Assembly (NCBI RefSeq): GCF_965200135.1
Contig: NZ_CBDATK010000007.1
Location: 244,659-308,658, forward strand
DNA: 64,000 nucleotides
Reading direction: 5' to 3'
Source of the DNA: Sphingomonas sp.
GTDB lineage: Bacteria; Pseudomonadota; Alphaproteobacteria; Sphingomonadales; Sphingomonadaceae
Below the pieces are notes generated by a model. It was not told the origin of the DNA. It saw only the letters and a list, made by a program, of their open reading frames with translations, and made no database searches. The position numbers were made by a program, and so were the translations under genes. Of this stretch, positions 47,355-64,000 are shown piece after piece (within the stretch, counting starts at the first letter, position 1; every line of letters starts with the position of its first letter).

Positions 47355-47441
47355 GCCCAGATGGCGGAATTGGTAGACGCACCAGCTTCAGGTGCTGGCG
47401 ATCGCAAGGTCGTGGAGGTTCGAGTCCTCTTCTGGGCACCA
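47355..47441 (+). tRNA. tRNA-Leu (anticodon CAG)
   Basis: Acceptor stem GCCCAGA/TCTGGGC. Anticodon arm CCAGC-TTCAGGT-GCTGG. Long variable arm, T-loop TTCGAGT, and an encoded CCA. Confidence 0.95.
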
Positions 47442-47446: not shown

Positions 47447-47592
47447 CTGTTCGCGAGAGTTCGCCACTGGTCGACAAACCCTAGGTTTTCTGCCATTTTC
47501 GCCAGCGACACGGTTGCTGGCGTACGCCTTTGTTCGCCGACAGCCGGGCCAAAACAGGGGCCTTTTTGGGGGCCCTTTTTGGAGGGCCTGAT

Positions 47593-48819
47593 ATGGCGCT
47601 TACCGATACGGCGATCCGGGCGGCAAAGCCGAAGGAGCGGGATTACAAGCTCGCGGACGGCAGCGGCCTCTATCTTCTGGTGACTAAGGCCGGCGGCAAG
47701 CTCTGGCGGCTGAAGTACCGGGCGCATGGCGTCGAGCGGAAGTTGGCGCTGGGGAAGTATCCCGATGTGACGCTGGGGGCGGCCCGTAAGGCGCGGGGCG
47801 AGGCGCGTGCGAAGGCGGGCGCGGGCGACGATCCGGCAGCGGCCAAGCGGCGCGAGCGGGTCGCGGCCAAGCTGGCGGCAGGCACCACTTTCGGCGCTGT
47901 CGCCCTGGAATATGTCGGCAAGGCTGAACGCGAAGGCCGCGCGCCCGCCACGATCGCTAAGCTTCATTGGGCGCGAGAGTGGCTGCGACCCGCGATCGGT
48001 CATCGTCCGGTCGATCAGGTGGAGCCTCACGAGTTGCTGGCCGTCCTAAAAAAGCAGGAAGCGCAAGGCAACCTAGAGACTGCCCGCCGGACCCGCGCCT
48101 TTGCCAGTCGCGTGTTTCGCTATGCGGTCGCCACCGCTCGCGCCAAGGCCGATCCGGCCGGGCTGTTGCTCGGCGCGGTGGCGTCGCCCAAACCCAAAAA
48201 CCTGTCCGCAATCGTCGACCCCAAGCGGATCGGCGAGCTGCTGCGCGCAATTGACGGCTATACTGGACAGCCGGTCACGCGGCTGGCGCTGGCGCTTTCG
48301 CCCCATGTGTTCGTCAGGCCCGGCGAGCTTCGCCAAGCGGAGTGGAGCGAGTTCGATCTGGAGGCAAACGTCTGGCGCATCCCGGCGGCGCGCATGAAGA
48401 AGCGGCGCGAGCATGTCGTACCGCTATCCCTTCAAGCACTGGCGATCCTTGGCAATCTGCGCGAATTGAGCGGCGGCGGGCGACTGGTATTCCCTGCGAT
48501 GGGCAAACGTGATCGTCCCCTTTCAGAGAATACGGCAACGGCCGCGCTTCGCCGGATGGGGTTCGGCGCGGACGAAATGACGGCGCATGGGTTCCGCGCA
48601 ATGGCGAGCACGCTGCTGAACGAGTCGGGCAAGTGGCATCCCGACGCGATTGAGCGCGCTCTGGCGCATCGTGACAGCGATCAGGTTCGCGCCGCCTACC
48701 ATCGCGGCGCGCATTGGGACGAGCGGGTCCGGATGGCGCAATGGTGGAGCGACAAACTGGACGCGCTGAAGACCGGGGCAACTATCCTGCCGCTGACGGC
48801 TCAGGCCCTTTTGCGTTAG
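47593..48819 (+). CDS. int: P4-type tyrosine integrase (DUF4102 arm-binding N-terminus)
   Basis: MALTDTAIRAAKPKERDYKLADGSGLYLLVTKAGGKLWRLKY at the N-terminus. Catalytic HGFRAMAST...AHRDSDQVRAAYHRG at the C-terminus. Confidence 0.9.
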   Translation: MALTDTAIRAAKPKERDYKLADGSGLYLLVTKAGGKLWRLKYRAHGVERKLALGKYPDVTLGAARKARGEARAKAGAGDDPAAAKRRERVAAKLAAGTTFGAVALEYVGKAEREGRAPATIAKLHWAREWLRPAIGHRPVDQVEPHELLAVLKKQEAQGNLETARRTRAFASRVFRYAVATARAKADPAGLLLGAVASPKPKNLSAIVDPKRIGELLRAIDGYTGQPVTRLALALSPHVFVRPGELRQAEWSEFDLEANVWRIPAARMKKRREHVVPLSLQALAILGNLRELSGGGRLVFPAMGKRDRPLSENTATAALRRMGFGADEMTAHGFRAMASTLLNESGKWHPDAIERALAHRDSDQVRAAYHRGAHWDERVRMAQWWSDKLDALKTGATILPLTAQALLR

Positions 48820-48851: not shown

Positions 48852-49781
48852 TTGGCGAGCATGGCCGAACACTGGATTGAGGCACGCGAGGCCGCTCGGA
48901 TCGTCAATGATACAGACGCGCTTCGCCAGCGCGTGTCGTTCGGGATGGTGCGATGCTGCGCCCGACGCGCCACGATCGACGGCGAGCCCGTCGAGTTCCT
49001 CTGTCTTCCCGATGAGTTCTGGTCCGACAGTGGACGAGAGCGCCTGCAACAAGACTGGGAGCATGGCGACTTCCAATCTAGTTTCGATGGGCTGACGGTT
49101 TCCTGCGCGTTCGGCGTGCGCTTCGACGCTTCGGATGTGATCGCAATGGTTCCTGTCGAAAAGCGGGCAGCGGCTGCGCGCAGTCTATCAGTTGCGGGCA
49201 ACGCGGCGTGGGTCTCGGCGCGGGAGGCTAGGCGCTTCGCTTACGATATGGCGGGGTTTAACCCGATGACGGCCGGCGCAGCTGTGGTCGAGCAATGCCG
49301 ACTTGGGTTTGTGACAGCGCGAGCGATCGAGATGCGATGGGCGGCCGGGCAAAGGCCGGATGACTGGACGCAGGAAGAGCGCGAGTGGGACATCCCAGCT
49401 TGGTTTTGGGAGCGTTTCACGACGCAAGACGCTAGTTCGCAGGATTGGGAGCAAGGTCGGTTTGCTGGACGGGGGCGCGCACCTCAGGGCTACGGCTGGC
49501 TAACGCTCAACGGAGTGCACTTCCTGCGGTCCTCGCTCGATGTCCTTTTGCCGGTTGCGCCACCAGTGCCGGGAGAGCACGACCAAGCGGATCCGCGCAA
49601 GCCGGCACTTCCGGAAGCCGAATTGGAGAGATGGTGGAATAAGCTCGCGAAGGCACGAGACGGGCTTACGCAGGAACAGCTACGCGGGCTCGCGGCCAAC
49701 GATCATCCGCAACATAGCGTCTCGCGAGATCGCATCCGGGCGCTGGCAGAAGGCCGCAAACCGGGCCCAAAGACAAATTAG
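48852..49781 (+). CDS. hypothetical protein with an internal ~100-aa duplication
   Basis: 309 aa. aa 8-101 and 120-233 align with each other (W[IV]xAREAxR ... FW...QDWE[HQ]G.F ... G.T..GV.F...). No known domain recognised. Confidence 0.5.
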   Translation: MASMAEHWIEAREAARIVNDTDALRQRVSFGMVRCCARRATIDGEPVEFLCLPDEFWSDSGRERLQQDWEHGDFQSSFDGLTVSCAFGVRFDASDVIAMVPVEKRAAAARSLSVAGNAAWVSAREARRFAYDMAGFNPMTAGAAVVEQCRLGFVTARAIEMRWAAGQRPDDWTQEEREWDIPAWFWERFTTQDASSQDWEQGRFAGRGRAPQGYGWLTLNGVHFLRSSLDVLLPVAPPVPGEHDQADPRKPALPEAELERWWNKLAKARDGLTQEQLRGLAANDHPQHSVSRDRIRALAEGRKPGPKTN

Positions 49782-50073: not shown

Positions 50074-50559
50074 ATGGCCGCGCGGCGGGCCGGCCCAAAT
50101 TCCGTCAAGCTCAACCGCACCTATGACGTGGCAGAGCTGGCGGCGCGATTGGGCGTGCATAAGAATACGGTGCGCCATTGGCAGCGCGACGGGTTGAAAC
50201 CGCTCGACAGCGGCCGGCCCGTGCTGTTCCACGGCGCGACAGTCCGCGCCTTCCTTTCGAGCCGTAGCGCCAGCCGCAAGTCGCCCTGTCCGCCGGGGAC
50301 CCTCTACTGCTTCAAGTGCCGCTCGCCGCGTTCGCCGGCTTTGGGCATGGTCGATTATATCCCGATCAACGCCACGGGCGGCAACGTCCGGGCGATCTGC
50401 GCCGCCTGCGAAACCGTCATGCATCGCCGCGCCGCCAAAGCCTCGCTCGCGACCATCCTGCCCGGCTGCGACGTCCAAATCGCGCAAGCACCGCCACGCC
50501 TAAAGGGCAGCCCCTCGCCCTCCCTGAACTGTGACTTGGAAAGGCAGGCGACAATATGA
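50074..50559 (+). CDS. HTH (MerR/excisionase-like) plus CxxC...CxxC zinc-ribbon protein
   Basis: YDVAELAARLGVHKNTVRHWQRDGLKP, then CFKC ... CAAC. Has an ATGA overlap with the next recombinase gene. Confidence 0.6.
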   Translation: MAARRAGPNSVKLNRTYDVAELAARLGVHKNTVRHWQRDGLKPLDSGRPVLFHGATVRAFLSSRSASRKSPCPPGTLYCFKCRSPRSPALGMVDYIPINATGGNVRAICAACETVMHRRAAKASLATILPGCDVQIAQAPPRLKGSPSPSLNCDLERQATI

Positions 50560-51671
50560 CGAAGCACAACGCCGCAAACGAGCGGGTGAAGCGAGATTAC
50601 TACCGCTATCTGAAGGAGGCGAAGGGCCGTGACGAGGCTACGATCGACGCCGTTGCCAAGTCGCTGGCGCGGTTCGAGGAATCGACCAAGCGCAAGGAGT
50701 TTCGGCGCTTCCACCGCGAACAGGCGGTCGCCTTCAAGCGGGCGCTGGCAGACGCGTTGAACGCGCGCACGGGGGAGCGGCTGAGCAAGGCGACGATGCT
50801 GTCGACGCTGCGCGACCTCCGCGCCTTCTTCTTCTGGTTGGCACACCTGCCTGGCTTCAAGTCGCATATTGCCTATGCGGACGCGGACTATTTCAACCTG
50901 AGCGACAAGGACGTGGCGGTCGCGCGCGCGCGGCGCGAAAAGCGGGTGCCGACACTCGCGCAAGTGCACCTCGTTCTGTCGTCCATGCCCGCCGACACCG
51001 TGCTCGAAAGGCGCAACCGGGCGCTGATCGCTTTTGCCGCGTTGACCGGCGCGCGCGTTGGCGCGCTGGCATCCTTCCGGCTGGGGCACGTCAACCTGGA
51101 CGAAGGTTATGTCGAACAGGATGCGCGGTCCGTCCGCACCAAGTTCGCCAAGACGTTCCGTACCTATCTCATGCCGATCGAAGGCAGCGCGCAGACCGTG
51201 TTCGCCGACTGGACCCGCGAGCTGGAGCGGGATCATCATTGGGGCGGCGACGATCCGCTGTTCCCAGCGACCGAAATGGGGCTCGACGAAAACGGCGGCT
51301 TTCGCGCGGCGGGGATCATGCGGAACGGCTGGAGCACGACACAGCCGATCAATGCGGTGTTTCGGCGAGCGTTCGAGCGGGCCGGCCTGCCGTATTACAA
51401 CCCTCACAGCTTCCGCGATATGCTGGTGCGCCATGCGATGACGCTCAACCTGTCGCCGGAAGCGATGAAGGCATGGTCACAAAATCTGGGCCACGCCGAC
51501 GTACTAACCACCTTCACGAGCTATGGCAGCGTACCGACACACCGCCAGGGCGAACTTATCCAATCAATCTCGCATGCAGGGGGATCGTCACCAGCCCGCG
51601 ACGAGGTCGCTCAGGCTCTTGCTACGCTTCAGCGCGTGATCCCCGGACTAGGCGGTTCGAGACACGCGTAA
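50556..51671 (+). CDS. tyrosine-type site-specific recombinase/integrase
   Basis: ALTGARVGAL (Arg), HSFRDML (HxxR), NLGHADVLTTFTSYG (His and Tyr). Confidence 0.85.
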   Translation: MTKHNAANERVKRDYYRYLKEAKGRDEATIDAVAKSLARFEESTKRKEFRRFHREQAVAFKRALADALNARTGERLSKATMLSTLRDLRAFFFWLAHLPGFKSHIAYADADYFNLSDKDVAVARARREKRVPTLAQVHLVLSSMPADTVLERRNRALIAFAALTGARVGALASFRLGHVNLDEGYVEQDARSVRTKFAKTFRTYLMPIEGSAQTVFADWTRELERDHHWGGDDPLFPATEMGLDENGGFRAAGIMRNGWSTTQPINAVFRRAFERAGLPYYNPHSFRDMLVRHAMTLNLSPEAMKAWSQNLGHADVLTTFTSYGSVPTHRQGELIQSISHAGGSSPARDEVAQALATLQRVIPGLGGSRHA

Positions 51672-51733: not shown

Positions 51734-53848
51734 ATGAAACCATACACACGCTCAATTATCGAGCTTTTCGATGGTAAGAAGCGATACCTGATCCCCCTTT
51801 ATCAACGCCAGTATGCGTGGAAGGTCGAGCCGCAGCTTAGGCTGTTGTGGGAAGACATTGTTCGCGCATACCAGCGCCTCTTGAAGGATCGGGCTTCGGT
51901 GGTCCCCCACTTCATGGGGGCAATGGTTATCGCGCAAATTAAAACCTTCGGGAAGGAGGTCCAAGCGTTCGAAGTTATTGATGGGCAGCAAAGGATGACT
52001 ACTTTCCAGCTGTTGCTGGCGGCGCTTCGTGACGTGGCCGCCGCGAACGGCTCGTCGTATGCTGCCGAAATCCAGAAGTACCTGTTCAATGAGGGTATCA
52101 TGGAGACGCCCAACGTCGAACGATTTAAGGTTTGGCCGTCGCTGATGGATCGAAGGGCGTTTGCGCATGTCATCGATTCCGCCATCAATCTTGATGAGAT
52201 CGCGAAGAGGCCGCCGGAAGAAGATGGTTTCGTTCGTAAGGCCGTGCAAGCACACGAGTGGTTCCGCGAGCAGATCAACGCCCATGTCGGTAGCGGTGAG
52301 CACTACGACGAAGCCAAGCTTGAGAAGCTCTTCGAAGCCATGAAGGAGGGGCTCGCTGTCGTCTCAATCGAGCTTGAAGGCGGCGACGATCCCCAGACCA
52401 TCTTCGAAACGCTTAACAGCCGTGGTGTCGACTTGACCCCAGGCGATCTAATGCGGAACTTCATATTTCAACGCGCAAAGGGCATGGGCCAAGAACAGGG
52501 CTCTTTGAAGATCGACGAGCTGTATGAGAAGCACTGGCTCCCGCTTGACGGTCCCTTTTGGGGAACTTTGGCTTATCGAGGTCGGCAGGGGGCGAGTCGT
52601 CTGGACTGGATGCTGACCGACCATCTCTCGATGGAGAAAGCCGACGTCATCTCAAAAGAGGCACTCTTCGAGAGCTATAGGCGGTGGATTATTGATCAGC
52701 AGCCTTTTGCGGGAGTCGAACCGGAACTGGCAGCGATCACTGCGTCGGCAGCCGTCGAGCGGAAGATTTTCGAAAAGGACAAGGACAACCCAATCGGCAA
52801 GTTCGGCTTACTTGCGGAGGCCTTTGACGTCAGCACGGCGTTTCCTTTGGTCGTATACCTAGCCACGGAGGCCGATGTCGGCGAGAGGCTGTCGGCCGCG
52901 CTTGAAATGTTGGAAAGTTATATACTGCGGCGTGACATCGCCGGCCTCTCCACGAAGAGCTACAATCGATTTTTTGTGGGCACAATCGATCGCTTGCGGG
53001 AAAGCGAAGGATGTAAGGTCGCCGCGCTGGCGCGGTGGCTTTCGACAAGGCCAAATGAGACGGATCGGTGGCCCAACGATGCCGAGTTTAGGCAGGGATG
53101 GCTGGGACGCGATCAGTATAAATCAGCTCGCCAGCCCCGACTGCGCTACGTTTTCGAGCGGATCGAGCGCGCTAAACGAACGGCCCTTAGTGAAGAAATA
53201 GAGATAAAGTCCGCACTGACTATTGAGCACATTATGCCACAGAAGTGGCGTGACAATTGGCCAATCGAGGGGTTCGATCACGCAGGGTCCGCGTACGCTG
53301 ATCCAGACCAACTGAGCGCAGAGATTAAACGAGACGAGTGCATCAACAAACTCGGCAACCTGACGCTAGTTACGTCCCCACTTAACTCGACCATGTCGAA
53401 CGGGCCGTTTTCAGCCAAGCTTCCGGCGCTGCGGGCTCATGCCAGTCTCGCGTTGAATCGTGAACTGCACGACTTCGATGTCTGGAACGAAGGATGCGTC
53501 GAGGCGCGTGGAGCGGCGTTGTTGGAGGCCGCGCGAAAGGTGTGGATGCCGCCGCTTGAAGCCAAAACTGCTTTCCCCGAGCTGGGTCGCTTGGGTGAAA
53601 ACGGCAACCTCCCGGCTGAAGGCACCATCTGTCGATTCCAGTATGGCGGCGAGACGTTCATAGGTCTGGTCAAAAGCCGTAAGATGGAAGTGGAAGGCGT
53701 CGGAGGCTCGCACAGCTCTTTCTCCGGGGCCTCGTCGGCAGCGACTCAAACGAGCCGTAACGGATGGAACGATTGGGAGCTAAAAGGCCGGGACGGTTGG
53801 GTTTCGGCCGACACCTGGCGCTCTCAATCGGGTGCCGGCACGGCATAA
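51734..53848 (+). CDS. GmrSD-like DUF262/DUF1524 protein (type IV restriction-like) with a DUF4357-like C-terminal tail
   Basis: YLIPLYQRQYAW and EVIDGQQRMTT (DUF262). TIEHIMPQKW ... LGNLTLVTSPLNSTMSN (His-Me finger, DUF1524). Tail is SFSGASSAATQTSRNGWNDWEL. Confidence 0.8.
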   Translation: MKPYTRSIIELFDGKKRYLIPLYQRQYAWKVEPQLRLLWEDIVRAYQRLLKDRASVVPHFMGAMVIAQIKTFGKEVQAFEVIDGQQRMTTFQLLLAALRDVAAANGSSYAAEIQKYLFNEGIMETPNVERFKVWPSLMDRRAFAHVIDSAINLDEIAKRPPEEDGFVRKAVQAHEWFREQINAHVGSGEHYDEAKLEKLFEAMKEGLAVVSIELEGGDDPQTIFETLNSRGVDLTPGDLMRNFIFQRAKGMGQEQGSLKIDELYEKHWLPLDGPFWGTLAYRGRQGASRLDWMLTDHLSMEKADVISKEALFESYRRWIIDQQPFAGVEPELAAITASAAVERKIFEKDKDNPIGKFGLLAEAFDVSTAFPLVVYLATEADVGERLSAALEMLESYILRRDIAGLSTKSYNRFFVGTIDRLRESEGCKVAALARWLSTRPNETDRWPNDAEFRQGWLGRDQYKSARQPRLRYVFERIERAKRTALSEEIEIKSALTIEHIMPQKWRDNWPIEGFDHAGSAYADPDQLSAEIKRDECINKLGNLTLVTSPLNSTMSNGPFSAKLPALRAHASLALNRELHDFDVWNEGCVEARGAALLEAARKVWMPPLEAKTAFPELGRLGENGNLPAEGTICRFQYGGETFIGLVKSRKMEVEGVGGSHSSFSGASSAATQTSRNGWNDWELKGRDGWVSADTWRSQSGAGTA

Positions 53849-56171
53849 CATTGATCGGCGGGTCGGAGCCTCGGTGCCCGCGCGAGTGGAAGGTGCACGA
53901 GTGGAATTGAGTGACGACGACAAGGCGCTGATCGCCGACCACCTCGCGCGCGGGGAGCCATTGCCGGACCGGTTCCGCTGGACGCTGTTCCGCGAACCGC
54001 GCGAGGCGGAGCTGATCTGGCCGGGCAAGACGAGCGAAGTCACCAACGTCGTCCTGCCGTTCCAGAGCATCGAACAGATTGACGAACCCCGCAGCGAGGC
54101 GGGCGCTCAAGTCGCGGACCTTTTCCAGATGGGCAGCGGCGGGCGACAAGGCGGTGGCTGGTCGAACAAGCTGATCTGGGGCGACAACAAGCTGGTACTA
54201 TCCAGCTTGATTGGCGGCCCCTTACGGCGTGATATTGAAGCCGCCGGCGGCTTGAAGTTGGTGTACATCGACCCTCCATTTGACATTGGGGCCGACTTTT
54301 CAGTGGAGCTGGACGTCGGGGGTGAGACTCTCTCCAAGTCTGCAAGTGTCATTGAAGAGATTGCTTACCGAGACACGTGGGGTCGTGGAACAGACTCCTA
54401 TGTTCACATGATTATTGAACGTCTTCGTGCAATTCACGCGCTGTTGCATGCCGAAGGTTCAATAATGGTTCATGTAGGTTGGGCCGTCTCTCACATCATG
54501 CGGATAGCCTTAGATGAGGTATTCGGCGCACAGAACATCATGAACCAAATCATTTGGAAACGGCAAACCGCACATAGCGATGGCGGTCAAGGTGCTCGAC
54601 ATCTAGGCCGTATCCATGACGTTATCTTGTATTATAGAAAGTCGGAGTCTTTCACATTCAATACGCAGTACACTGATTACGATGCAAGATACTTAGAAAC
54701 CCATTACAAGGGCAAGGAGGAGGGCACAGGTCGACGATTCGAACTTGATAATCTAACCGCTCCTGGCGGAGCTGGGAAGGGTAACCCCTACTACGAACTA
54801 ATGGGTGTTAAGCGGTACTGGCGCTATAGCATCGACAAGATGGATCAACTGGTGAAGGCCGGTCGAATAATTCAACCAAGTCCCGGTGCTGTGCCGCGGT
54901 ACAAACGCTACCTCGATGAAATGCCTGGTCTTCCGCTCCAAGACATATGGTCTGACGTCAGTGCGATAAACTCTCAGGCAGTAGAGGCGGTTGGATACGC
55001 AACACAAAAGCCAGAGTCGTTGATGCAACGGATCGTATGTCTAGCATCCAATCCCGGAGATATAGTAGCCGACCTGTTTTGTGGCTCAGGGACTACCATA
55101 GCCGTTGCCGAGAAGCTCGGCCGTAAGTGGATTGGCGCGGACTTGGGCCGCTTCGCTATTCATACCAGTCGCAAGCGCCTGATCGGAGTGCAACGCGAGT
55201 TGAAGGCGGCTGGCAGGCCGTGGCGCAGCTTTGAAATTCTTAATCTCGGCAAGTACGAGCGCCAATGGTTCGCGGGGATCGACCCCGCGCTTCCGGCGGG
55301 GGAGAGCGCTCAAGCGGCGGCGGCGAAGGAAGCGGCCTATGTCGCGCTGATCCTGGAGGCGTATCGCGCGCAACCCGTCGAGCAGTCGCCGCCCTTCCAT
55401 GGGGTGAAGGACAGTGCCTTCATCGTCGTTGGGCCGCTCGACGCGCCGGTTAACGAGCTGACCGTCGCCGAGGCGGTGGAAGCGGCGCGGCGCATGGGCG
55501 TGGCGCGGGTCGACGTGCTCGGATTCGAGTTCGAAATGGGCCTTGCCCCGCGCGCGGTCGACGATGCGAAGGCAAAGGGTGTCGCAGTCGCGCTGCGCTA
55601 TATCCCGAAGGACGTGTTCGACCGGCGGGCGATCGACAAGGGACAGGTGAACTTCCACGACCTCGCCTATGTCGAGGCGCGCGCGACGATCGCCGACAAG
55701 AAGGCGCGGCGGGTGACAGTCACCCTGTCGAACTTCGCTGTCGCCTATCGGCAGGACGGGCTCGACAACCTGATCGACGGGATGCGGCCGGGCACCAAGG
55801 TGGCGGTCGACGACGGGCAGGTCGTCAAGCTGACCAAGGCGAAGGACGGCACCGTCACGCGCGAGGTGCTGACCAAAGAATGGACCGACTGGATCGACTA
55901 TTGGGCGGTCGATTTCGACTACGCCAGCCGTCCGGAAACGATCCACGAAACCGTGACGCAAGCCGACGGGACGGTGAAGCACGTGCCGCAATGGACCGGG
56001 CGCTACATCTTCGAAAACGAGTGGCAGAGCTTCCGCACCCGCCGCAACCGCGCGCTGGAGCTGACCAGCGCGACGCATGAGTATGCGACGCCCGGCCGCA
56101 AACAGATTGCGGTCAAGGTGATCGACATATTCGGGAACGACACGACCAAGGTGATCGGGGTGGAGGTTTAA
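53832..56171 (+). CDS. mod: type III R-M DNA methyltransferase (Mod, beta-class N6A/N4C MTase)
   Basis: LVYIDPPFD (54270-54281) lies upstream of DLFCGSGTT (55077-55097). The conserved N-terminus LSDDDKALIADHLARGEPLP suggests the true start may be GTG 53901. Confidence 0.9.
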   Translation: MPARHNIDRRVGASVPARVEGARVELSDDDKALIADHLARGEPLPDRFRWTLFREPREAELIWPGKTSEVTNVVLPFQSIEQIDEPRSEAGAQVADLFQMGSGGRQGGGWSNKLIWGDNKLVLSSLIGGPLRRDIEAAGGLKLVYIDPPFDIGADFSVELDVGGETLSKSASVIEEIAYRDTWGRGTDSYVHMIIERLRAIHALLHAEGSIMVHVGWAVSHIMRIALDEVFGAQNIMNQIIWKRQTAHSDGGQGARHLGRIHDVILYYRKSESFTFNTQYTDYDARYLETHYKGKEEGTGRRFELDNLTAPGGAGKGNPYYELMGVKRYWRYSIDKMDQLVKAGRIIQPSPGAVPRYKRYLDEMPGLPLQDIWSDVSAINSQAVEAVGYATQKPESLMQRIVCLASNPGDIVADLFCGSGTTIAVAEKLGRKWIGADLGRFAIHTSRKRLIGVQRELKAAGRPWRSFEILNLGKYERQWFAGIDPALPAGESAQAAAAKEAAYVALILEAYRAQPVEQSPPFHGVKDSAFIVVGPLDAPVNELTVAEAVEAARRMGVARVDVLGFEFEMGLAPRAVDDAKAKGVAVALRYIPKDVFDRRAIDKGQVNFHDLAYVEARATIADKKARRVTVTLSNFAVAYRQDGLDNLIDGMRPGTKVAVDDGQVVKLTKAKDGTVTREVLTKEWTDWIDYWAVDFDYASRPETIHETVTQADGTVKHVPQWTGRYIFENEWQSFRTRRNRALELTSATHEYATPGRKQIAVKVIDIFGNDTTKVIGVEV

Positions 56172-56174
56172 CCC

Positions 56175-58844
56175 ATGCCGCTCAACCCCGCCTTTTCCGC
56201 CGACCCCTATGTGATCCTGTCGCCCGACGTCCGTTGGTATCCGGGCGACGAGCTGTTGGGGGGTATGGGGCAAGCCTCGCTCATTCCGCCGCTGGTCGAC
56301 AAGGTCCGGCGGGGTGTCGCCTCATGGCGGGCGGCGAGATATGCCGGGGCGAGCGAGACGACGCGCGCGCTGCTGCGCTGGTGGTTCGAACGCGAACACG
56401 TGCTGTACGGCGACGACGGCCCGTTCCTCTGGCAATGGTATTTCGCGCAGCGCGAGGCGGTGGAAAGCGCGGTGTGGCTGTATGAAGTCGCCAAGGCGCG
56501 CGACCCGCTGAGCCTGATCGCCTATGACAGCACGGGCGCGGTATCGCAGCAAATGTTCGACGAGCATTGGACGCGCTACGTCCTGAAGCTCGCGACGGGC
56601 GCGGGCAAGACCAAGGTCGCGAGCCTGCTGATCGCCTGGAGCTATTTCCACAAGCTCTATGAGGCGGATTCGACGCTTTCGACCAACACGCTGCTGGTCG
56701 CGCCGAACATCATCGTGCTCGACCGGCTGCGCGTCGATTTCGATGGCGCGCGGGTGTTTCACAGCGACCCGGTGTTGCCGCCGAACGGGTATGAGGGACG
56801 CGACTGGAGCGCTGATTTTCAACTGACCGTGCACGTGCAGGACGACATCGGGCACGTCGCGCCGCGTGGAAACCTGTTCCTGACCAACATTCACCGGGTC
56901 GACGAGGGCGGGCGGGCAACGCCGACGTGGGATTTGCGCGAGCAATTCCTGGGCGCGAAGCCGGTTGCCAAGACGACGGACAGCAAGGCGGACCTGGGCG
57001 TCATCGTGCGTTCGGTGCCCGACCTGATCGTCATCAACGACGAGGCGCACCATGTTCGCGAGGGCACGGCCTGGTTCCGGCAAATGGGCGAACTCGACGC
57101 TGGGCTTCGCCGGCGGGGAACCGGGCTGTCGGCGCAATTCGACCTGACCGCGACGCCCAAACACAACAACGGCGCGATATTCGTGCAGACGGTGTCGGAC
57201 TATCCGCTGGTCGAAGCGATTGCCCAAGGCGTGGTCAAGACGCCCGTCCTGCCCGACGCCGCCAGCCGCGCGCGCCTGACCGTCCGGCAAAGCGAGGATT
57301 TCGTCGAGCAGTATCAGGATCATCTCGACTTGGGCGTGCTAGAATGGAAGCGGACCTTCGGCGAGCTGAGGAAGGCCGGCAAGAAGTCGGTGCTGTTCGT
57401 CATGACGGACAACACGTCCAATTGCGACCGGGTCGCTGAGTGGCTGGGCACGCGCTATCCCGAACTGAAGAACAAGGTGCTGGTGATCCACACCAAGGAC
57501 AACGGCGAGATTTCGGAAAGCTCGACGGGGAAGGGCAAGGCCGAACTCGACGAGTTGCGCAAGCAGAGCCGTGAAATTGATGGCTGGGAAAGCCCCTATC
57601 TGGCGGTCGTGTCGGTCATGGTGCTGCGCGAAGGCTGGGACGTGCGCAACGTCACGACGATCGTCGGCTTGCGCGCCTTCAAGGCACCGTCGAACATCCT
57701 GCCCGAACAGACGATCGGGCGCGGGCTCAGGCGCATGTTCACCGGCCGCGACGTCAAGGAACAGGTCAGCGTGCTCGGCACCGAACGGTTCCTGGAGTTC
57801 GTCGAGACGATCAAGAACGAAGGCGTCGAGCTGGAACAGCGGCCGATGGGGAGCAACAGCGGACCCGCCGGGCCGATGGTTGTCGAAATCGATCGCGACA
57901 AGGACGTCGCCGCGCTCGACATCGAACTCCCCAAGCTGAAGCCACGCATCGAACGCCAGTTCTATCGTTTCGAGGAAATCGACGACGCTAGCCTGCCCGC
58001 CCCCCGCGTAACCTTGCGCGAGTTCACCGAAGCCGAGCAGCGCGAAATCGTGTTCCGGGACATCCGCACCGACGAGGTGAGTCACACGACGCAGCTCGAC
58101 GCGGGCGCGGTCGCGGACTGGCGCAACGTCGTCGGCTGGTTCGCCAAGTCGATCAAGGACGATTTGCGACTGGTGGGCGGCTATGACGTGCTGTTCGGGA
58201 AGCTGGTGCCATTCATCGAAGACGGGTTGTTCGACCGCAACGTGTCGCTCGACGACCCGAACGTCTTGCGGAACCTGAGCGAGACGGGCGTCACCCGCGC
58301 ACTGTTTGACACCATCAAGGGCGCCATCAACCGGCTGACCGTGCACGACAGCGGCGACACGCACGTCGTCGACCGGATCAAGCTGTCGGCAACCCGGCCG
58401 CAAGTAACGAAGCGGCGGGACATGATCGAAGCGACCAAATCGCTGATGAACAAGGTCGTCGGCGACAACGCCTTCGAACTTGCCTTCGCCCGCTTCCTAG
58501 AGGCGGCGGCGGACGTGCAGGCGTTCTTCAAGAACACGGAAGCGACGGGCTTCACCGTCGAATATCAATCAGCCGGGGGCGGTATCGTGCGCGACTACCG
58601 GCCGGACTTCATCGCGCGGGCGGTCGACGGCACCGTCTGGATCGTCGAAACCAAGGGACGCGAGGATTTGGACGATCCGCGCAAATGGACCCGCCTCAAG
58701 CTCTGGTGCGCTGATGCGACCAAACAGGATGCGCCGAACCACTACCGGGCGTTGTTCGTGCGCCAGGAAGCCTGGGAAGGCCGGTTGAACCCCGTTCGCA
58801 CGCTTGGGGAGGCCTCTGCCGCCTTCGACACAAACGCCGACTGA
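56175..58844 (+). CDS. res: type III restriction enzyme Res subunit (SF2 helicase plus PD-(D/E)xK nuclease)
   Basis: GGAGG RBS. LATGAGKTKV, VINDEAHHV, LTATPK and QTIGRGLR helicase motifs. C-terminal YRPDF...WIVETKG nuclease motif. Confidence 0.9.
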   Translation: MPLNPAFSADPYVILSPDVRWYPGDELLGGMGQASLIPPLVDKVRRGVASWRAARYAGASETTRALLRWWFEREHVLYGDDGPFLWQWYFAQREAVESAVWLYEVAKARDPLSLIAYDSTGAVSQQMFDEHWTRYVLKLATGAGKTKVASLLIAWSYFHKLYEADSTLSTNTLLVAPNIIVLDRLRVDFDGARVFHSDPVLPPNGYEGRDWSADFQLTVHVQDDIGHVAPRGNLFLTNIHRVDEGGRATPTWDLREQFLGAKPVAKTTDSKADLGVIVRSVPDLIVINDEAHHVREGTAWFRQMGELDAGLRRRGTGLSAQFDLTATPKHNNGAIFVQTVSDYPLVEAIAQGVVKTPVLPDAASRARLTVRQSEDFVEQYQDHLDLGVLEWKRTFGELRKAGKKSVLFVMTDNTSNCDRVAEWLGTRYPELKNKVLVIHTKDNGEISESSTGKGKAELDELRKQSREIDGWESPYLAVVSVMVLREGWDVRNVTTIVGLRAFKAPSNILPEQTIGRGLRRMFTGRDVKEQVSVLGTERFLEFVETIKNEGVELEQRPMGSNSGPAGPMVVEIDRDKDVAALDIELPKLKPRIERQFYRFEEIDDASLPAPRVTLREFTEAEQREIVFRDIRTDEVSHTTQLDAGAVADWRNVVGWFAKSIKDDLRLVGGYDVLFGKLVPFIEDGLFDRNVSLDDPNVLRNLSETGVTRALFDTIKGAINRLTVHDSGDTHVVDRIKLSATRPQVTKRRDMIEATKSLMNKVVGDNAFELAFARFLEAAADVQAFFKNTEATGFTVEYQSAGGGIVRDYRPDFIARAVDGTVWIVETKGREDLDDPRKWTRLKLWCADATKQDAPNHYRALFVRQEAWEGRLNPVRTLGEASAAFDTNAD

Positions 58845-58849
58845 AGTCG

Positions 58850-59032
58850 CTAGTCGTGAAGCAAGCCGCACAAGCTTGCTCGGTCAATCAGTCGCGCGCG
58901 GCCCACCTTCACACTGCGGAGCCTGCCCGACTTCATTAGCTCATATATCGTTGTCCGTCCGAGGCCGTGCCTACATGCCGTGCCTACTCGCACGGTAAGC
59001 GGCTCCGCTTCGTCGATCCACACTTCGGCCAT
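58850..59032 (-). CDS. AlpA/excisionase-family HTH protein (60 aa)
   Basis: Internal Met. MAEVWIDEAEPLTVRVGTACRHGLGRTTIYELMKSGRLRSVKVGRARLI. Confidence 0.6.
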   Translation of the reverse strand: MAEVWIDEAEPLTVRVGTACRHGLGRTTIYELMKSGRLRSVKVGRARLIDRASLCGLLHD

Positions 59033-59150
59033 TTGAGGCTCCATATCGGTCTGGAGCGTGGTGGGCACTACACAATGCATGCAGAACATATGACGGACAA
59101 CAGCGGGCCGTCAAGGTCGAAGCCCGCGGATTAGCCCGGATTTTCGCGAC

Positions 59151-59185
59151 TGACCATCAGTGATGGGCAGGTGGTCATTGACCAC
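59151..59185. promoter_or_regulatory. cluster of TGACCA/TGGTCA palindromes (possible operator)
   Basis: CCATCAGTGATGG (59154-59166) and the perfect GTGGTCATTGACCAC (59171-59185). Located in the divergent region between the AlpA-like gene and the SIR2-NTPase gene. Confidence 0.3.
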
Positions 59186-59543
59186 GAACCGCACGCCTTA
59201 TGGCCAAGCGTAAGATGCTGTATTAAAGCGCATTATCTGAGGCGCGCCGCGTAAGGTGTGCCTGGTTTTAAGCGCATAGTGAGTGGCTATTAGGCGAAGC
59301 CCAAGCTTCTGAGATACGGTTCTATATACCCTTCTGGCGGGAGCGCCGGAGGCGCAACAATGCTCCAGCCTAAGGACCGTGCCTCCGAGCTGAACCCATT
59401 GACCGGTTAACCCGGGGGCGGTCGCCTGCACCGGTGTCGTAGCGCGTTGAAGGACCTAGGCTTGCCCCGGCAGTTGCAAGAGACCTAAGATCGTAATCTG
59501 AAGTCCACCGGAGATAGAAGACGATGATTTATCATGTGGGCTC

Positions 59544-62042
59544 TTGACCGTGGGCGATAAGTTGGCGGGCCAGAAACACGCGAGGCTCGTGAGTTCGAAG
59601 GGGGACGACGTGGCGGACTTAGATTGGGAAGCGATCGGCTCAGCCGTCAAGAGTGGCCGGTACAATCTGCTCTTGGGAGCGGGCGTGAGCTTGGACAGCC
59701 AGAGCGGGCTGCCCAACGAGAAATGTCCGGCGGCTGGAGGGCTAGCAAAGGCACTGCAAGACGCATTGCCGGGAGTGCGTCCCGGTTCCTCATTGAACCG
59801 GCTATACCGAACGATGAAGCCGGAGCAAATTGAGCAACAAATAACCAATAGGTTCCGTGGCTGCGTACCAGGCGATACCGTCAAGGAAATCGCGAAATTT
59901 AGATGGAAGCGCATCTTCACATTGAATGTAGATGATGCGCTTGAGAGGGCCTACGAAACTAAAGAGCTTTCTGTTCAGAGTGTCAGACCGTTTAACTATG
60001 TGGACCCGTACGAGAGTATTCGTGACCTTCGTGTCCTCCCGATTGTCCATCTTCACGGATGGGCCCGCCGCCCGGAGGATGAGTACATCTTTGACATCAA
60101 GGAGTACATGGGTGCAATCAGCTCCAACAATATTTGGGCTCATATCCTTGGCACCCTAATCAGAACGGAGCCATTTATTGTCCTTGGCAGTTCGTTGGAA
60201 GAGCCGGATATCACATACTTTCTCTCGGACAGAGCTAACGTAATCGAGCGAAGGGATCGTCCGCCATCGATCATAGTAGAGCCCTTTCCTGACGCTGGAA
60301 CGGAAATCGACTGCGAAGAGTACAAAATGGGCCTCTTCACGGGATCGGCGCTGGAATTTCTGAATGAAGTAAATCGCCGGTTCCCAGTTCGCCCAACTGT
60401 CGATGAGGCTATCGCGGACAATCTCGGGGACATCGCTTCAGCGAAGATTGATGCCAGTGCCCTGACGGAATTTCACTCGGATTTCGAACGCGTTCCCGAC
60501 GACGGGCGGGAGGGAGCCGACGGGGGAACGAACTTCGCCTACGGTCACCAACCCACTTGGCTAGATATTCAAAACGGGCGCGATGTCTCTCGCGAAAACA
60601 CCGGGTCGCTTGAAGCGGAGATAATCAAAAACGGTGATAAAACACTTTATGTAGTCGCCGGAGGTCCTGGGGCGGGCAAAACTACCCAGCTGAAGAGGCT
60701 TGCATGGAACATCGCTCAGTCAGGCGCTCCGTGCTTCTGGCTCCGTTCAGTCGGCCGTATTCGTACTTCAAGCGCCGCAGCGGTGCTCGGGAGCCTAGGT
60801 CGACGCTGCTACGTGTTTGTCGACAATCTAGCAGATAACGTGTCTGAGATACTCGCACTCCAACAACGGTTACCACGCGACAACGTGGTGTTTGTTGGGG
60901 CGGAACGAGCCTACCGGATCGGCCATGTCCGGAGAGTCCTGGGAGGCGGCGTACTCACTCCGGAAATTCTAGGCCCTGTCGGAGAATCGATCGCTGGAGA
61001 GCTTCTCACCGCCTACAAGAACTATGGTCTCGCGAACCCGCCACAGCAGGATGCCAACCTGAGCCCGGTGGCGGACGAAGTTGTTGCAGTGGCCTGCTGC
61101 CGCATTCTAAATAACTTTGAACCCCTCGCAAACATAATAGATAAGTCTCTTGCCGATGCCCCGCAGGATGTCGATTGCTATGTCTTCGCGGCATTAGCTG
61201 CTCATTGCTTTAGGCAGGGGGTCGAGTACGACATCATCAGCGCGAAGTTTCCAGGGTATCAGGTGGAGACACAAATCGACGATGAAGCGGCTCTTCCCTT
61301 AAAGTTAGAAGACGTTTCAGGGCTAGAGCTTGTTACTCCGCTCAATGAGGCTGTTTCGGACTCCGTTCTAGGCCGCTTTACCAACCGCTTTCCCGATAGG
61401 TCTTTGAAGCTCTTCGGAGACTTGGCTCATGCGATTCGTCCAAGGGTTAGCATCAAGGCTATGATGGCCGGTGACCCAGCAGCACGAATTGCATCACGAC
61501 TGTTTGATTTCGATGAGGTAGTCAAGCCGCTCTTAGGCATTCAAGGTGCTGGCCTATTCTACGAAGCGACTAAGAAGGAATGGAAGTGGAACTCCCGCTA
61601 CTGGCACCAAATTGCCCAGTATCGGCTCGACTTGGCTGCATATGCAGACGACCCGGCTGTTAGAAAACAAGAAGCCGAGCTTGCAGTGCAGCATGCTCGT
61701 TTTGCAAAGACCATAGAGCGCTCACACCAGTTTACGATGACGACCATAGGCCGAGTTATTTTTGGTAAGATGCGTCTCCTCGGCAGGGTTATCCCGAGTG
61801 AGCTGGAGGAAGCGCTGGACGCGTTGTCCTCCGCAATACGCATAGAAGCTTACAAGGGCAGGGTAACGGTCCACCCCTTTATGATCCTCTTTAAAGGCCT
61901 TGCGGAGTCGCTCGAAGCAGGTGCTGTGCTATCAAGCGAGCAGAAGAGTATTGTGCGGTCACAAATCGAAAGGGCGATGGACGCTTTTAGGCGGGATCAA
62001 GACCTTGCCGCTGAAGCTAACCGCATGCGCAAATTAATTTGA
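59544..62042 (+). CDS. SIR2-like domain / P-loop (STAND-like) NTPase / helical-repeat protein, candidate antiphage defence
   Basis: LLLGAGVS, IFTLNVDDALE, VHLHGW and FIVLGSSLEEPD form a SIR2_2-like region. GGPGAGKTT is Walker A and CYVFVDNLAD is Walker-B-like. The C-terminal ~370 aa look helical. The likely start is GTG 59610, behind GAAGGGGGA. Confidence 0.8.
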   Translation: MTVGDKLAGQKHARLVSSKGDDVADLDWEAIGSAVKSGRYNLLLGAGVSLDSQSGLPNEKCPAAGGLAKALQDALPGVRPGSSLNRLYRTMKPEQIEQQITNRFRGCVPGDTVKEIAKFRWKRIFTLNVDDALERAYETKELSVQSVRPFNYVDPYESIRDLRVLPIVHLHGWARRPEDEYIFDIKEYMGAISSNNIWAHILGTLIRTEPFIVLGSSLEEPDITYFLSDRANVIERRDRPPSIIVEPFPDAGTEIDCEEYKMGLFTGSALEFLNEVNRRFPVRPTVDEAIADNLGDIASAKIDASALTEFHSDFERVPDDGREGADGGTNFAYGHQPTWLDIQNGRDVSRENTGSLEAEIIKNGDKTLYVVAGGPGAGKTTQLKRLAWNIAQSGAPCFWLRSVGRIRTSSAAAVLGSLGRRCYVFVDNLADNVSEILALQQRLPRDNVVFVGAERAYRIGHVRRVLGGGVLTPEILGPVGESIAGELLTAYKNYGLANPPQQDANLSPVADEVVAVACCRILNNFEPLANIIDKSLADAPQDVDCYVFAALAAHCFRQGVEYDIISAKFPGYQVETQIDDEAALPLKLEDVSGLELVTPLNEAVSDSVLGRFTNRFPDRSLKLFGDLAHAIRPRVSIKAMMAGDPAARIASRLFDFDEVVKPLLGIQGAGLFYEATKKEWKWNSRYWHQIAQYRLDLAAYADDPAVRKQEAELAVQHARFAKTIERSHQFTMTTIGRVIFGKMRLLGRVIPSELEEALDALSSAIRIEAYKGRVTVHPFMILFKGLAESLEAGAVLSSEQKSIVRSQIERAMDAFRRDQDLAAEANRMRKLI

Positions 62043-62063
62043 GCGCGTCCACGAGACCGCCGC

Positions 62064-62395
62064 TTACGCGGGCAGCCGCCTCGCGATCACATCGTCGGCT
62101 GAGTGCGCGTACCGCGCCGTCGTCTGGGAGGGAGCGTGCCCGAGCAGCTTGCGGTCATCGACAGCGGTATGCTGTCCGAGAGGGTGACGCAGGCGAAGCT
62201 ATTTCGAAGGTCGTGCAGTCGCACGTTCGGCAACGCCCCGCGTGTGCGCGGGCGTTCCCTTGCAGGAGTTGGAGCTCTTACGGCGATAATCTTGGATCAT
62301 CGGCCCTCAAGTGCTCCATCTACCGGTTTCGATCGCGCTCGTTGCTCGGATGAGCCCGTCCGAAGGTCCGCCCCGCCGCAGGAAAGTAGGCGCAC
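62064..62395 (-). pseudogene. tyrosine integrase C-terminal remnant
   Basis: Reverse-strand reading gives VRLHDLRNSFA (62224-62192) and, in another frame, KLLGHAPSQTTARYAHSADDVIARRLPA* (stop 62064-62066). There is an in-frame TGA at 62297-62299. The N-terminal two-thirds of the gene are absent. Confidence 0.7.
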
Positions 62396-62458: not shown

Positions 62459-64000
62459 TCAATGGTTTGCACTGCAAACGCGCGTCCTCTTCTGGCACCA
62501 CTTCCGGTCAAAACTGGGCACCGTAGCGCAAGCTGCGGGATCGCCTTTCCGGGCGGCGTTTTCGAGCGCAGCCTTCGAACCGGCGATGATGATCTCGTTG
62601 TCGTTGACCGTCACGTTGGACACCAGCAAGCGTACATACGCGCGACGCATTTCGCTGTTTTCGGCCAGAATGCTGGCGCGCAGCGCATTACCGAAGCGCT
62701 GGATTGCTTCGTCGGTGATCTGGTGCGCGGCGTTGCCGAGCTGCCCGGCCAGGCTGCGCTCGGTTTCGGCGAGGGTGGCGATGGAGGCATTGGCCTCGGC
62801 GAGCTTGGTCGCGAAGATCGGATCGCGGACGCTCATCATTCCGTCCTCGACGATCTCGAGCAGCCGGCGCAGCCGCGTCTCCGCCGCGATGCGTTCGCGA
62901 CGCACGCGGTGGAGATCCTGTTCACGGCGCTGCCTGGCATCATCGGACCGATCGAGCACGTCGGCGAGCAGCGCGCGCAAGCGATCCGGCGCTAGGACGC
63001 GATGGAGCAGGCCGTCGAGCACGATCGCATCGAGCGCGTCTTCGCGAATCGACTTGCTGGGACATTCGCTTGCGCCCGCCGTCGCCTTCTGGTTGCAGAC
63101 GTAGTAGCGATACTGACCACCCTTGCCGCTGCGGATCACCATCCCGGCATTGCACTCGGCATGGCCGCAGGTCGCCAGGCCACCCAGCAGCACGGGCGAG
63201 TTGGTGATGCGTGGCGCCGTCACACGCGGCGCGGCCTTCGACCGAATCGCGGCGACGCGCGCCATCACGTCAGGCTCGATGATCTTCGGGCATTCGACAA
63301 CGATCTCGTCGGCGGTGTTGGGCGTAGCACCATGATCGTCGCGCGTGCGGTCCCGGTAGGATCCGGCGTAATGTTCGCGCGTCAGGATGCCATCGACGTT
63401 GCTGTGATAGAACTTCCTGCCGCGCAGCGTGTAGCCCTGATCGTTGAGATATTTGGCGATCGCCCGCGTGCCCATCGGCTGGCCGGCCAGACCGGTGCAC
63501 GCCAGTTGCACGATCAGGCGAACGACCGCCGCTTCGGGCGCACGCACGAACAGCTTCTTCCGCTCCTTGCGTCCCTCGACGCTGACTACGCGCGATTCAT
63601 AGCCGAACGGGACCGGCCCGCCGTTCCAATATCCCGCCTGGGCATTGCCGCGCCGATCGCGGCAGGTGAACGTGGATGCGTCGTTGGCGTACTTCTCGTT
63701 CATCACCGCGATGAAACCGCGCATCATCCGGCTGTTGGGATCATCGCCCATTCCCTCGATGACGGAGATGAGCTTCACTCCAGCCTCGGTCAGCTTGTGC
63801 TCGGCGGTGACTTGAGTGAGCAGCCGCCGGGTGAACCGGCTCAGCGCATAGACGACCACGACATGCACCGGGCGGGCGGGCGACGTCGCCAGCGCGATCA
63901 TCCGGTCGAACTGCCTGCGCTGCAGCTTCCGGCCCGACACGTTCAGTTCCTCGAACACCTCGGCGACCGCGATGCCTTCGCGTTCGCACAGGGCCCGGCA
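62459..64000 (-). CDS. large serine recombinase (N-terminus outside window)
   Basis: The ORF is open to the window edge. It has a resolvase-domain end (VVVYALSRFTRR), a recombinase domain, a zinc ribbon (CGHAEC...YYVCNQ) and a coiled-coil C-terminus. Confidence 0.9.
   Translation of the reverse strand, partial: CRALCEREGIAVAEVFEELNVSGRKLQRRQFDRMIALATSPARPVHVVVVYALSRFTRRLLTQVTAEHKLTEAGVKLISVIEGMGDDPNSRMMRGFIAVMNEKYANDASTFTCRDRRGNAQAGYWNGGPVPFGYESRVVSVEGRKERKKLFVRAPEAAVVRLIVQLACTGLAGQPMGTRAIAKYLNDQGYTLRGRKFYHSNVDGILTREHYAGSYRDRTRDDHGATPNTADEIVVECPKIIEPDVMARVAAIRSKAAPRVTAPRITNSPVLLGGLATCGHAECNAGMVIRSGKGGQYRYYVCNQKATAGASECPSKSIREDALDAIVLDGLLHRVLAPDRLRALLADVLDRSDDARQRREQDLHRVRRERIAAETRLRRLLEIVEDGMMSVRDPIFATKLAEANASIATLAETERSLAGQLGNAAHQITDEAIQRFGNALRASILAENSEMRRAYVRLLVSNVTVNDNEIIIAGSKAALENAARKGDPAACATVPSFDRKWCQKRTRVCSANH
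62484..62505 (+). repeat. attR-like degenerate copy of the tRNA-Leu 3' end
   Basis: GTCCTCTTCTGGCACCACTTCC versus GTCCTCTTCTGGGCACCATTTCC in the tRNA. One G is missing and there is one T>C change. Confidence 0.7.

Follow-up and report, generated by a model that had tools for sequence, protein, structure and literature searches.

A probable Avs5-type SIR2-STAND antiviral protein of divergent sequence on a Sphingomonas tRNA island

The stretch of Sphingomonas sp. DNA analyzed here (64,000 nucleotides [nt] of contig NZ_CBDATK010000007.1, positions 244,659 to 308,658; hereafter, the window) carries a gene whose product joins a SIR2 domain to a STAND NTPase, and this gene raises the question of whether it represents a known kind of antiphage defense or something new. 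A preliminary description had proposed a SIR2, STAND NTPase, and helical-repeat architecture like that of Avs5, and had also left room for a distinct, undescribed family. It is possible that the protein is an Avs5 relative whose sequence has diverged. Alternatively, it may represent a separate SIR2-STAND family that resembles Avs5 through shuffled modules and carries an independent C-terminal sensor. Our results point to the former: the gene product is probably an antiviral protein of the STAND (NLR-like) class and the Avs5 (AVAST type 5) kind, encoded without a partner gene, and a member of a divergent subfamily of about 810 amino acids (aa) related to the clade of PaAvs5-1 (clade 1).

Both recognizable domains scored above their Pfam cut-offs, with 46.3 bits against 24.5 for SIR2_2 (PF13289) and 74.2 bits against 34 for nSTAND_NTPase5 (PF25199, also nSTAND5). 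We counted conservation across 27 aligned homologues, whose identity to the window protein is 22-64%, and number residues along the 832-codon open reading frame (ORF) described below (Table 1). Residues G45, G47, S49, T126, N128, D130, H171, G172, E220, G378, K379, R455, and R458 were invariant in this alignment. Because the motifs are invariant across 27 divergent homologues and the Pfam scores exceed their cut-offs, we conclude that they are not chance resemblances. All six motifs listed in the preliminary description (LLLGAGVS at 42-49, IFTLNVDDALE at 124-134, VHLHGW at 168-173, FIVLGSSLEEPD at 211-222, GGPGAGKTT at 373-381, and CYVFVDNLAD at 422-431) are present, and its proposed Avs5-like architecture is one with which Pfam, the AlphaFold model, and matches in the Protein Data Bank (PDB) agree.

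The SIR2 domain matched that of Avs5 clade 1 with an hhalign probability of 100% (E 1e-39). PaAvs5-1 has the equivalent of the GAGxS motif at aa 24-28, and in its TTNXD motif, to which TxNxD of the window protein corresponds, N110A and D112A each abolish immunity (PMC12931631). Immunity is likewise abolished by E202A (PMC12931631); E220 of the window protein aligns with E195, which is invariant in clade 1, and on this basis it is the likely equivalent of E202. At the position of the sirtuin catalytic histidine, the ~810-aa subfamily has HLHG, the PaAvs5-1 clade KLNG, and EfAvs5 HING, and the HLHG of the window protein aligns both to KLHG of ThsA and to the NG variant of clade 1. HG and NG types occur at about 1:1 among Avs5 homologues (PMC12931631).

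The nucleotide-binding domain (NBD) also matched clade 1 (probability 99.5%, E 2.6e-22). Its Walker B strand holds one acidic residue, D427, which is D in 26 of the 27 homologues, and the next position is N (19), S (4), G (2), or D (2); the Walker B of PaAvs5-1 likewise has a single acidic residue (PMC12931631). In the profile alignment, R455 falls on the arginine of the EfAvs5 'TTR' motif, the role of which has been described (PMC11897194). By analogy with the NBD-HD-WHD order of EfAvs5 (PMC11897194), residues ~514-600 may correspond to the helical domain (HD) and winged-helix-like domain (WHD), a region that on its own matched clade 1 weakly (probability 18%, E 1.3e-3).

At full length, the window family and the PaAvs5-1 clade matched with a probability of 100% (E 1.6e-54) over 775 collinear columns. 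Among single sequences, BLASTP aligned the window protein to an 827-aa protein of Pantoea conspicua (locus L080; 29% identity over 454 aa, E 2e-39, 143 bits), whose gene adjoins a P4 integrase. From its species and length, this protein is likely to be WP_094119783.1, which appears in Table S1 of PMC12931631 (Mol Cell 2026), a BLAST list seeded with PaAvs5-1, as an 827-aa Avs5 homologue 36% identical to PaAvs5-1. When the Pantoea protein served as query in turn, the matches came from species that Table S1 also lists (Pectobacterium, Enterobacter kobei, Morganella, Pseudomonas juntendi, Thiomicrospira sp. WB1, Marinomonas gallaica, and Gilliamella, among others), and each carried SIR2_2 and nSTAND5. 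For scale, this clade-1 protein of Pantoea scored 26 bits against a fragment of EfAvs5, a clade-3 protein. Because the window protein, at 143 bits, is nearer to clade 1 than clade 1 is to this fragment, we place it within published Avs5 diversity, and its SIR2 and NTPase core is firmly homologous to Avs5.

These results mostly dispose of the suggestion that the family is distinct and undescribed, given the 100% hhalign match, the same Pfam pair in clade 1, and the BLASTP match to Pantoea. Since the match to a typed family is full length, a finding that the preliminary description had itself said would make the gene known, we count the gene as a known kind. Its compact size, which the preliminary description had cited as leaving room for a distinct family, lies within the 763-869 aa spanned by Avs5 proteins. 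What survives of the claimed novelty is narrower than a new family: a C-terminus that is weakly similar when taken alone, the failure of curated hidden Markov models (HMMs) to detect the protein, and its absence from the parts of Table S1 that were checked.

Several results weigh against placing the protein in Avs5. The NCBIfam model for Avs5 (NF041814) scored it at 22.7 bits, far under its cut-off of 1000, and aligned only to residues 94-219, and the PADLOC Avs5 model (PDLC02170) gave 15.2 bits over residues 100-219 only, a stretch of the SIR2 domain. The C-terminal repeat matched the clade-1 C-terminus weakly (probability 24%, E 8e-4), and HD-WHD plus the repeat reached a probability of 70% (E 4e-5), in register, which is still weak when these regions stand alone. 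With a model of the sensor only, Foldseek returned no significant specific match, just generic TPR proteins and the SAMD9 TPR region (best E 8e-3). TM-scores to Avs5 filament structures were low (0.26-0.30), with poor global superposition. Finally, many homologues are flanked by housekeeping rather than defense genes, and the literature searched contained no experimental test of the ~810-aa subfamily.

The misses by the curated models, the generic sensor matches, and the weak C-terminal alignment are what a separate, undescribed family with shuffled modules and its own sensor would lead one to expect, as are the end of BLASTP similarity to clade 1 at about residue 432 and the lack of any member in the parts and terms checked of the published Avs5 table. 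We nevertheless consider such a family unlikely. The match to clade 1 is collinear over its whole length, clade 1 has an identical domain order and Pfam architecture, and the in-register alignment of HD-WHD and the C-terminus stands against controls below 1% (reversed C-terminus, 0.7%, E 0.077; an unrelated domain, SIR2, 0.1%, E 0.57). The bit-score comparison above argues in the same direction. In addition, a second tier of proteins of 830-862 aa with the same Pfam pair aligns both to the window protein (over 714-824 aa, at 24-26% identity) and to the Pantoea clade-1 protein (over 438-675 aa). The failure of the curated models is uninformative because the Pantoea clade-1 protein fails as well, having no match to NF041814; that model covers the EcAvs5-like clade only and not the whole Avs5 family.

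We also asked whether carrying nSTAND5 rather than nSTAND3 could mark a family other than Avs5, as published descriptions give Avs5 as Sir2 plus nSTAND3 (the text of the 2021 eLife paper names only nSTAND1 and nSTAND2). We rejected this idea. An EfAvs5 fragment rebuilt from HMMER alignments scored equally on the two models (34.4 bits for nSTAND3, PF20720; 34.2 bits for nSTAND5, PF25199), its relatives score higher on nSTAND5, the PaAvs5-1 clade carries nSTAND5, and many clade-1 proteins have precomputed matches to both. Because the two models overlap on Avs5 NTPase domains, the nSTAND3 label cannot separate Avs5 from proteins annotated with nSTAND5. Taken broadly, Avs5 is marked by a SIR2_2 domain with GAGxS, TxNxD, and the glutamate, by HG or NG at the catalytic-histidine position, by an NTPase of the nSTAND3/nSTAND5 type with Walker A, a single-acidic Walker B, and an arginine past the sensor-1 strand, by sequence homology, and by its single gene; the window protein shows each of these, with HG and nSTAND5. 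A helical-repeat sensor of the Avs5/SAMD9 type is a further mark; here the C-terminal region is confidently helical and TPR-like and is spanned by the full-length Foldseek alignments to Avs5 and SAMD9, with weak matches when taken alone. Taken narrowly, as a full-length match above the NF041814 or PDLC02170 cut-off, it does not include the window protein.

The full-length AlphaFold model was confident (predicted local distance difference test [pLDDT] 87.1; predicted TM-score [pTM] 0.87). Searching the PDB with this model gave full-length alignments to EfAvs5 (9jap, E 1.5e-21), human SAMD9 (E 6e-19), and the AVAST5 filament (9nc9, E 5e-17), and the highest TM-scores belonged to SAMD9 structures (TMq 0.47-0.49). 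The low TM-scores to the filaments probably reflect the comparison of what appears to be a closed-state model with active-state structures. Matches to DSR2 and ThsA were far weaker and ran through the SIR2 domain only (Foldseek E about 1e-7).

The region that has changed most lies downstream of the NTPase. Modeled separately, residues 600-832 formed twelve helices at a pLDDT of 96, and they contain two motifs that are invariant in, and peculiar to, the ~810-aa subfamily, WxWNSRYWxQ and H728...T733. WNSRYW faintly matches YWLQRA of 9nah, which is not significant by itself. We conclude that the C-terminal ~370 residues are of the Avs5 fold class and order, with a sequence that has diverged almost past recognition. 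Avs5 clades are themselves only 18-21% identical to one another, and the same regions are poorly conserved among them (PMC12931631).

A comparison with individual systems helps to define the subfamily. PaAvs5-1 of Pseudomonas aeruginosa (WP_079381190.1) and its clade are likewise single polypeptides of ~810-830 aa with SIR2_2 and nSTAND_NTPase5. They share GAGxS, TxNxD, the catalytic glutamate, and the single-acidic Walker B, with 29% identity over SIR2, linker, and NBD, and a P4-type integrase often lies beside the gene in clade 1, as it does in the window. However, identity is 19% in the profile alignment, the C-terminal ~370 aa are barely alignable, and the ~810-aa subfamily has C-terminal motifs of its own and keeps the canonical HG histidine where clade 1 has NG. 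EfAvs5 of Escherichia fergusonii (PDB 9JAP) is the best structural match, with the same order of SIR2, NBD-HD-WHD, and helical sensor, and it is also the best PDB profile match of the family (E 2.3e-12, covering SIR2 and NBD). It differs in that structure-based identity is 15%, BLASTP to the fragment gives 36.6 bits, and the TM-score is 0.30; moreover, EfAvs5 is 869 aa long and has a C-terminal basic tail for filament bundling, for which we see no evident counterpart in the window protein. The EcAvs5-type protein of the AVAST5 filament (9NAH/9NC9) is SIR2-STAND-helical too, and the family profile matches 9nah over SIR2 (E 9e-11), whereas the NBD and C-terminal profile alignments are not significant.

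Outside Avs5, human SAMD9/SAMD9L and bacterial Avs9, defined in PMC12680541, share the core of SIR2-like, P-loop STAND, and TPR regions at 10-13% identity, and a search with the sensor by itself brought up the SAMD9 TPR region, weakly, as one of its best matches; a link between Avs5 and SAMD9 has already been published (PMC12680541, PMC12803255). We rejected an identity with SAMD9 or Avs9, as Pfam finds none of their SAM, AlbA_2 nuclease, or OB-fold domains in the window protein, which starts with SIR2 and, unlike them, has as its predicted effector a SIR2 domain with an intact catalytic set. Effector type also excludes Avs6 (PNP) and Avs9 (AlbA_2; PMC12680541). DSR2 and ThsA carry NADase domains of the SIR2_2 type that share their catalytic N and H with the window protein, and the likeness is limited to that domain. 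DSR2 was rejected because it has no P-loop NTPase, whereas the window protein has a Walker A/B domain. ThsA combines SIR2 with SLOG and depends on ThsB, the product of an adjacent TIR gene; Thoeris was rejected, as the PADLOC match to ThsA covers SIR2 only, Pfam finds no SLOG, and no TIR match occurs in the scanned neighbors. A bNACHT assignment was rejected too, since NACHT (PF05729) scored 13.9 bits (E 0.049), under its cut-off of 26.7.

SIR2-fold enzymes have several chemistries, and with SAMD9 among the best structural matches, the domain might serve something other than bulk NAD+ depletion: ADP-ribosylation, deacylation, production of a nucleotide signal, or a structural or regulatory role as proposed for SAMD9. 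We consider this quite improbable. Every residue of NAD+ hydrolysis in domains of the PaAvs5-1 and ThsA types is invariant in the family, including the HG histidine; the domain is a Pfam SIR2_2 member; the nearest solved relatives include EfAvs5, ThsA, and DSR2, the first two of which are documented NADases; and no separate effector domain or partner gene was found.

We propose a mechanism for the Avs5-like protein by homology with EfAvs5 and PaAvs5-1. In the uninfected cell, the protein would be an inactive monomer. Upon infection, the C-terminal helical repeat, possibly together with the SIR2-NTPase linker, would recognize a phage-encoded protein, and the nucleotide-bound NTPase module would then drive a higher-order oligomer or filament. 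This assembly would juxtapose the SIR2 domains and turn on NAD+ hydrolysis, and the resulting depletion would halt phage replication at a cost to the infected cell. In PaAvs5-1, Walker A mutants lose immunity and NAD+ drops during infection, and E410Q still protects (PMC12931631), which suggests that this protein needs nucleotide binding rather than hydrolysis. EfAvs5 binds ATP without hydrolyzing it and becomes an NADase once in filament bundles, whose formation T7 gp1.7 promotes (PMC11897194). Given that the window protein keeps all corresponding residues (N128, D130, E220, K379, D427, and R455, plus the HG histidine), a course from sensing through nucleotide-dependent assembly and SIR2 activation to NAD+ loss is the most likely one, although its NADase activity, oligomerization or filamentation, trigger, and phage protection are all predicted by analogy. 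The triggers of its relatives, the jumbo-phage protein JADA for PaAvs5-1 and T7 gp1.7 for EfAvs5 (PMC11897194), cannot be assumed for the window protein.

How far does the subfamily extend? A word-indexed search found 82 clusters at 90% identity, nearly all of ~810 aa with both domains. An exhaustive profile search of representatives at 50% identity returned 1,154 proteins at E <= 1e-30, 2,881 at E <= 1e-10, and 5,573 at E <= 1e-3, counts that probably include sister groups beyond the ~810-aa subfamily. The 830-862-aa tier resembles, in length and taxonomy, the alphaproteobacterial entries of 836-871 aa with which Table S1 ends. Species and lengths of the ~810-aa subfamily were not found in the parts and terms of that table (PMC12931631) that were checked. 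On the phage side, BFVD yielded generic AAA+ proteins only, and no phage genome was matched by tblastn; among plasmids there were only four distant matches, to the N-terminal half. A tentative reading, which we hold with less than even confidence, is that the ~810-aa subfamily forms an additional clade of Avs5 outside the published four-clade sampling, with a diverged C-terminal half (bearing the invariant WxWNSRYWxQ and H728/T733), a retained HG, and a trigger other than JADA or gp1.7 that would most likely come from phages of Alpha- or Betaproteobacteria.

Relatives occurred in 105 of 185,579 species-representative genomes, spread over Alpha-, Beta-, and Gammaproteobacteria, Planctomycetota, Acidobacteriota, Chloroflexota, Gemmatimonadota, and Spirochaetota, and this patchiness suggests horizontal transfer. 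The base composition of the gene departs from its surroundings as well. Its G+C content is 53.8%, compared with 69.5% for window positions 1-47000, and G+C at third codon positions (GC3) is 57%, compared with 85% in the adjacent res gene; from these strong departures we conclude that the gene is foreign DNA. The low-GC patch noted earlier is real to the digit, with 45% G+C in the row 60121-60180 and 75% in the row 55441-55500, and rows of 60 nt with <=45% G+C make up 0.75% of the window.

The coding frame itself was also described correctly at the outset: the 832-codon ORF runs from a TTG at 59544 to 62042 on the forward strand, and GTG 59610 is its likely actual start, giving an 810-aa product of typical length for the family. 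We favor this start because homologues begin at ORF residues 23-26, because residues 1-23 are the sole long low-confidence stretch of the AlphaFold model (pLDDT < 50), and because GAAGGGGGA lies 4 nt 5' of the GTG. The 5' extension is probably not translated. The public gene call at this locus is shorter, at 785 aa. By codon count, its start would fall 47 codons into the ORF, near codon 48 and within GAGxS, and because of this and of the homologue support for GTG 59610 it looks mis-called. One might take the shortened call, with its cut through GAGxS, as the mark of a gene in decay, left without function on an old island. We think this highly improbable, as the frame is uninterrupted at the family-typical 810 aa, every invariant family residue is kept, and the model is confident throughout. 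The 520-bp intergenic stretch between the HTH_17 gene and the SIR2-STAND gene (59090-59609) is unusually long. Rfam found no match in it at E <= 1, and a promoter and terminator scan did not exceed shuffled expectation, with a single consensus promoter-like match within the chance number.

The tRNA island, restriction-modification (R-M) genes, and divergent HTH gene reported around the SIR2-STAND gene were all found in the window (Table 1). GmrSD and the type III pair form a compact defense cluster upstream of it (51734-58844), along which G+C climbs from 56% to 59% to 64%, and the listed mod ORF starts at GTG 53832, 17 nt before the GmrSD stop. Three recombinases on the island suggest nested or tandem mobile elements. 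The serine recombinase was considered as a pseudogene and rejected as such, since its frame is open to the window end and simply cut off there. No repeat of the tRNA-Leu 3' end that could be the right-hand att site occurs within the window, and so the island's right end probably lies past 64000.

Among homologous loci, no partner gene is conserved: in an all-against-all clustering of 699 neighbor ORFs from 66 loci, the largest cluster covered 4 loci. The divergent HTH_17 gene is not conserved beside homologues and is treated as context, not as a demonstrated part of the system. Next to the two closest homologues (64-65% identical) lies a 217-aa ORF for which no Pfam match is on record; it overlaps the SIR2-STAND stop by 4 nt, which could reflect translational coupling. 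It occurs at L082 (12427-13080), L083, L084, and L007 (12470-13078) only and is absent from the window and all other loci; the ORF found at the corresponding site of the window (62039-62353) has no relation to it. Homologue contexts include a type I R-M system with Mrr, an MmeI-type enzyme ~6 kb upstream, a Mob_Pre gene, and a ParA/ParB/integrase/ArdC element, and by Pfam and PADLOC the 141 nearest neighbors are housekeeping, mobile-element, and scattered defense genes (methylases, Hma, DrmD, and BrxH). With no conserved neighbor and such heterogeneous contexts, a self-contained single-gene system fits.

That many neighbors belong to ThiC, gyrase, tRNA synthetase, or ribosomal protein operons could instead mean that the protein is a signaling or housekeeping STAND ATPase of the cell, present on this island by chance. 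This is very unlikely in our estimation, considering the patchy distribution over many phyla, the strongly atypical G+C and GC3, the integrase, ParAB, or ArdC elements and adjoining R-M, GmrSD, or Mrr genes at several loci, and the homology to experimentally validated antiphage Avs5.

Table 1. Features of the Avs5-like gene and of the surrounding island, in window positions (residues are those of the 832-codon ORF)
Feature	Position	Strand	Basis or remark
In-frame 5' extension from TTG 59544	59544..59609	+	disordered in model; without consistent homologue coverage
Shine-Dalgarno-like purine-rich element GAAGGGGGA	59597..59605	+	sequence inspection; putative role
Avs5-like SIR2-STAND coding sequence, 810 aa, stop codon included	59610..62042	+	ORF list, homologue alignment, model, purine-rich element
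SIR2-type NADase effector domain, predicted (residues ~28-280)	59625..60383	+	Pfam SIR2_2, secondary structure, hhalign
GAGxS NAD-binding motif (G45-S49)	59676..59690	+	G45, G47, S49 invariant 27/27
TxNxD catalytic motif (T126, N128, D130)	59919..59933	+	invariant 27/27
HLHG, canonical sirtuin catalytic His H171 and G172	60048..60059	+	both invariant 27/27
E220, acidic residue of SIR2 domain	60201..60203	+	invariant 27/27
Helical linker SIR2-NTPase (residues ~286-345)	60399..60578	+	model secondary structure; invariant F310, G334, W339, D347
STAND nucleotide-binding domain (residues ~353-500)	60600..61043	+	Pfam nSTAND_NTPase5, hhalign
Walker A GGPGAGKTT (373-381)	60660..60686	+	G378, K379 invariant
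Walker B strand CYVFVDNLAD, one acidic residue D427, then N428	60807..60836	+	alignment of 27
GAERAYR, sensor-1-type arginine R455, R458	60897..60917	+	both invariant 27/27
Putative helical domain and winged-helix-like domain of NOD module (residues ~514-600)	61083..61343	+	helices, beta-hairpin 586-599 in model
TPR-like alpha-helical repeat, presumed sensor (residues 602-832)	61347..62039	+	separate model, Foldseek, hhalign
WNSRYW motif: W682, R685, W687, then Q689	61587..61604	+	invariant 27/27
tRNA-Leu(CAG)	47355-47441		
P4-type tyrosine integrase	47530-48819		beside tRNA-Leu
309-aa ORF directly 3' of island integrase	48852-49781		no Pfam match
HTH_17 gene preceding second tyrosine recombinase	50074-50559		
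Second tyrosine recombinase	50556-51671		
GmrSD-type (type IV) restriction enzyme	51734-53848		
Type III mod	53832-56171		
Type III res	56175-58844		
Small HTH_17 (AlpA/excisionase-type) gene, divergent	58850-59089	-	Pfam HTH_17 28.3 bits
Large serine recombinase	62459-64000	-	runs past window end

The gene brings no new mechanism or architecture; it represents a divergent Avs5 subfamily with its own sensor region, apparently unsampled as far as the parts of the published table that were checked extend. Its main significance lies in a gap in detection, as this well-populated Avs5-like group escapes the Avs5 models of PADLOC (v2.0.0) and NCBIfam, and NCBI names its members just 'SIR2 family protein' or 'P-loop NTPase'. 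A profile for the ~810-aa group would help to annotate the defense systems of Alpha- and Betaproteobacteria as well as those of environmental phyla, and a diverged sensor on a conserved SIR2-NTPase chassis could help to locate the parts of Avs5 that recognize phages.

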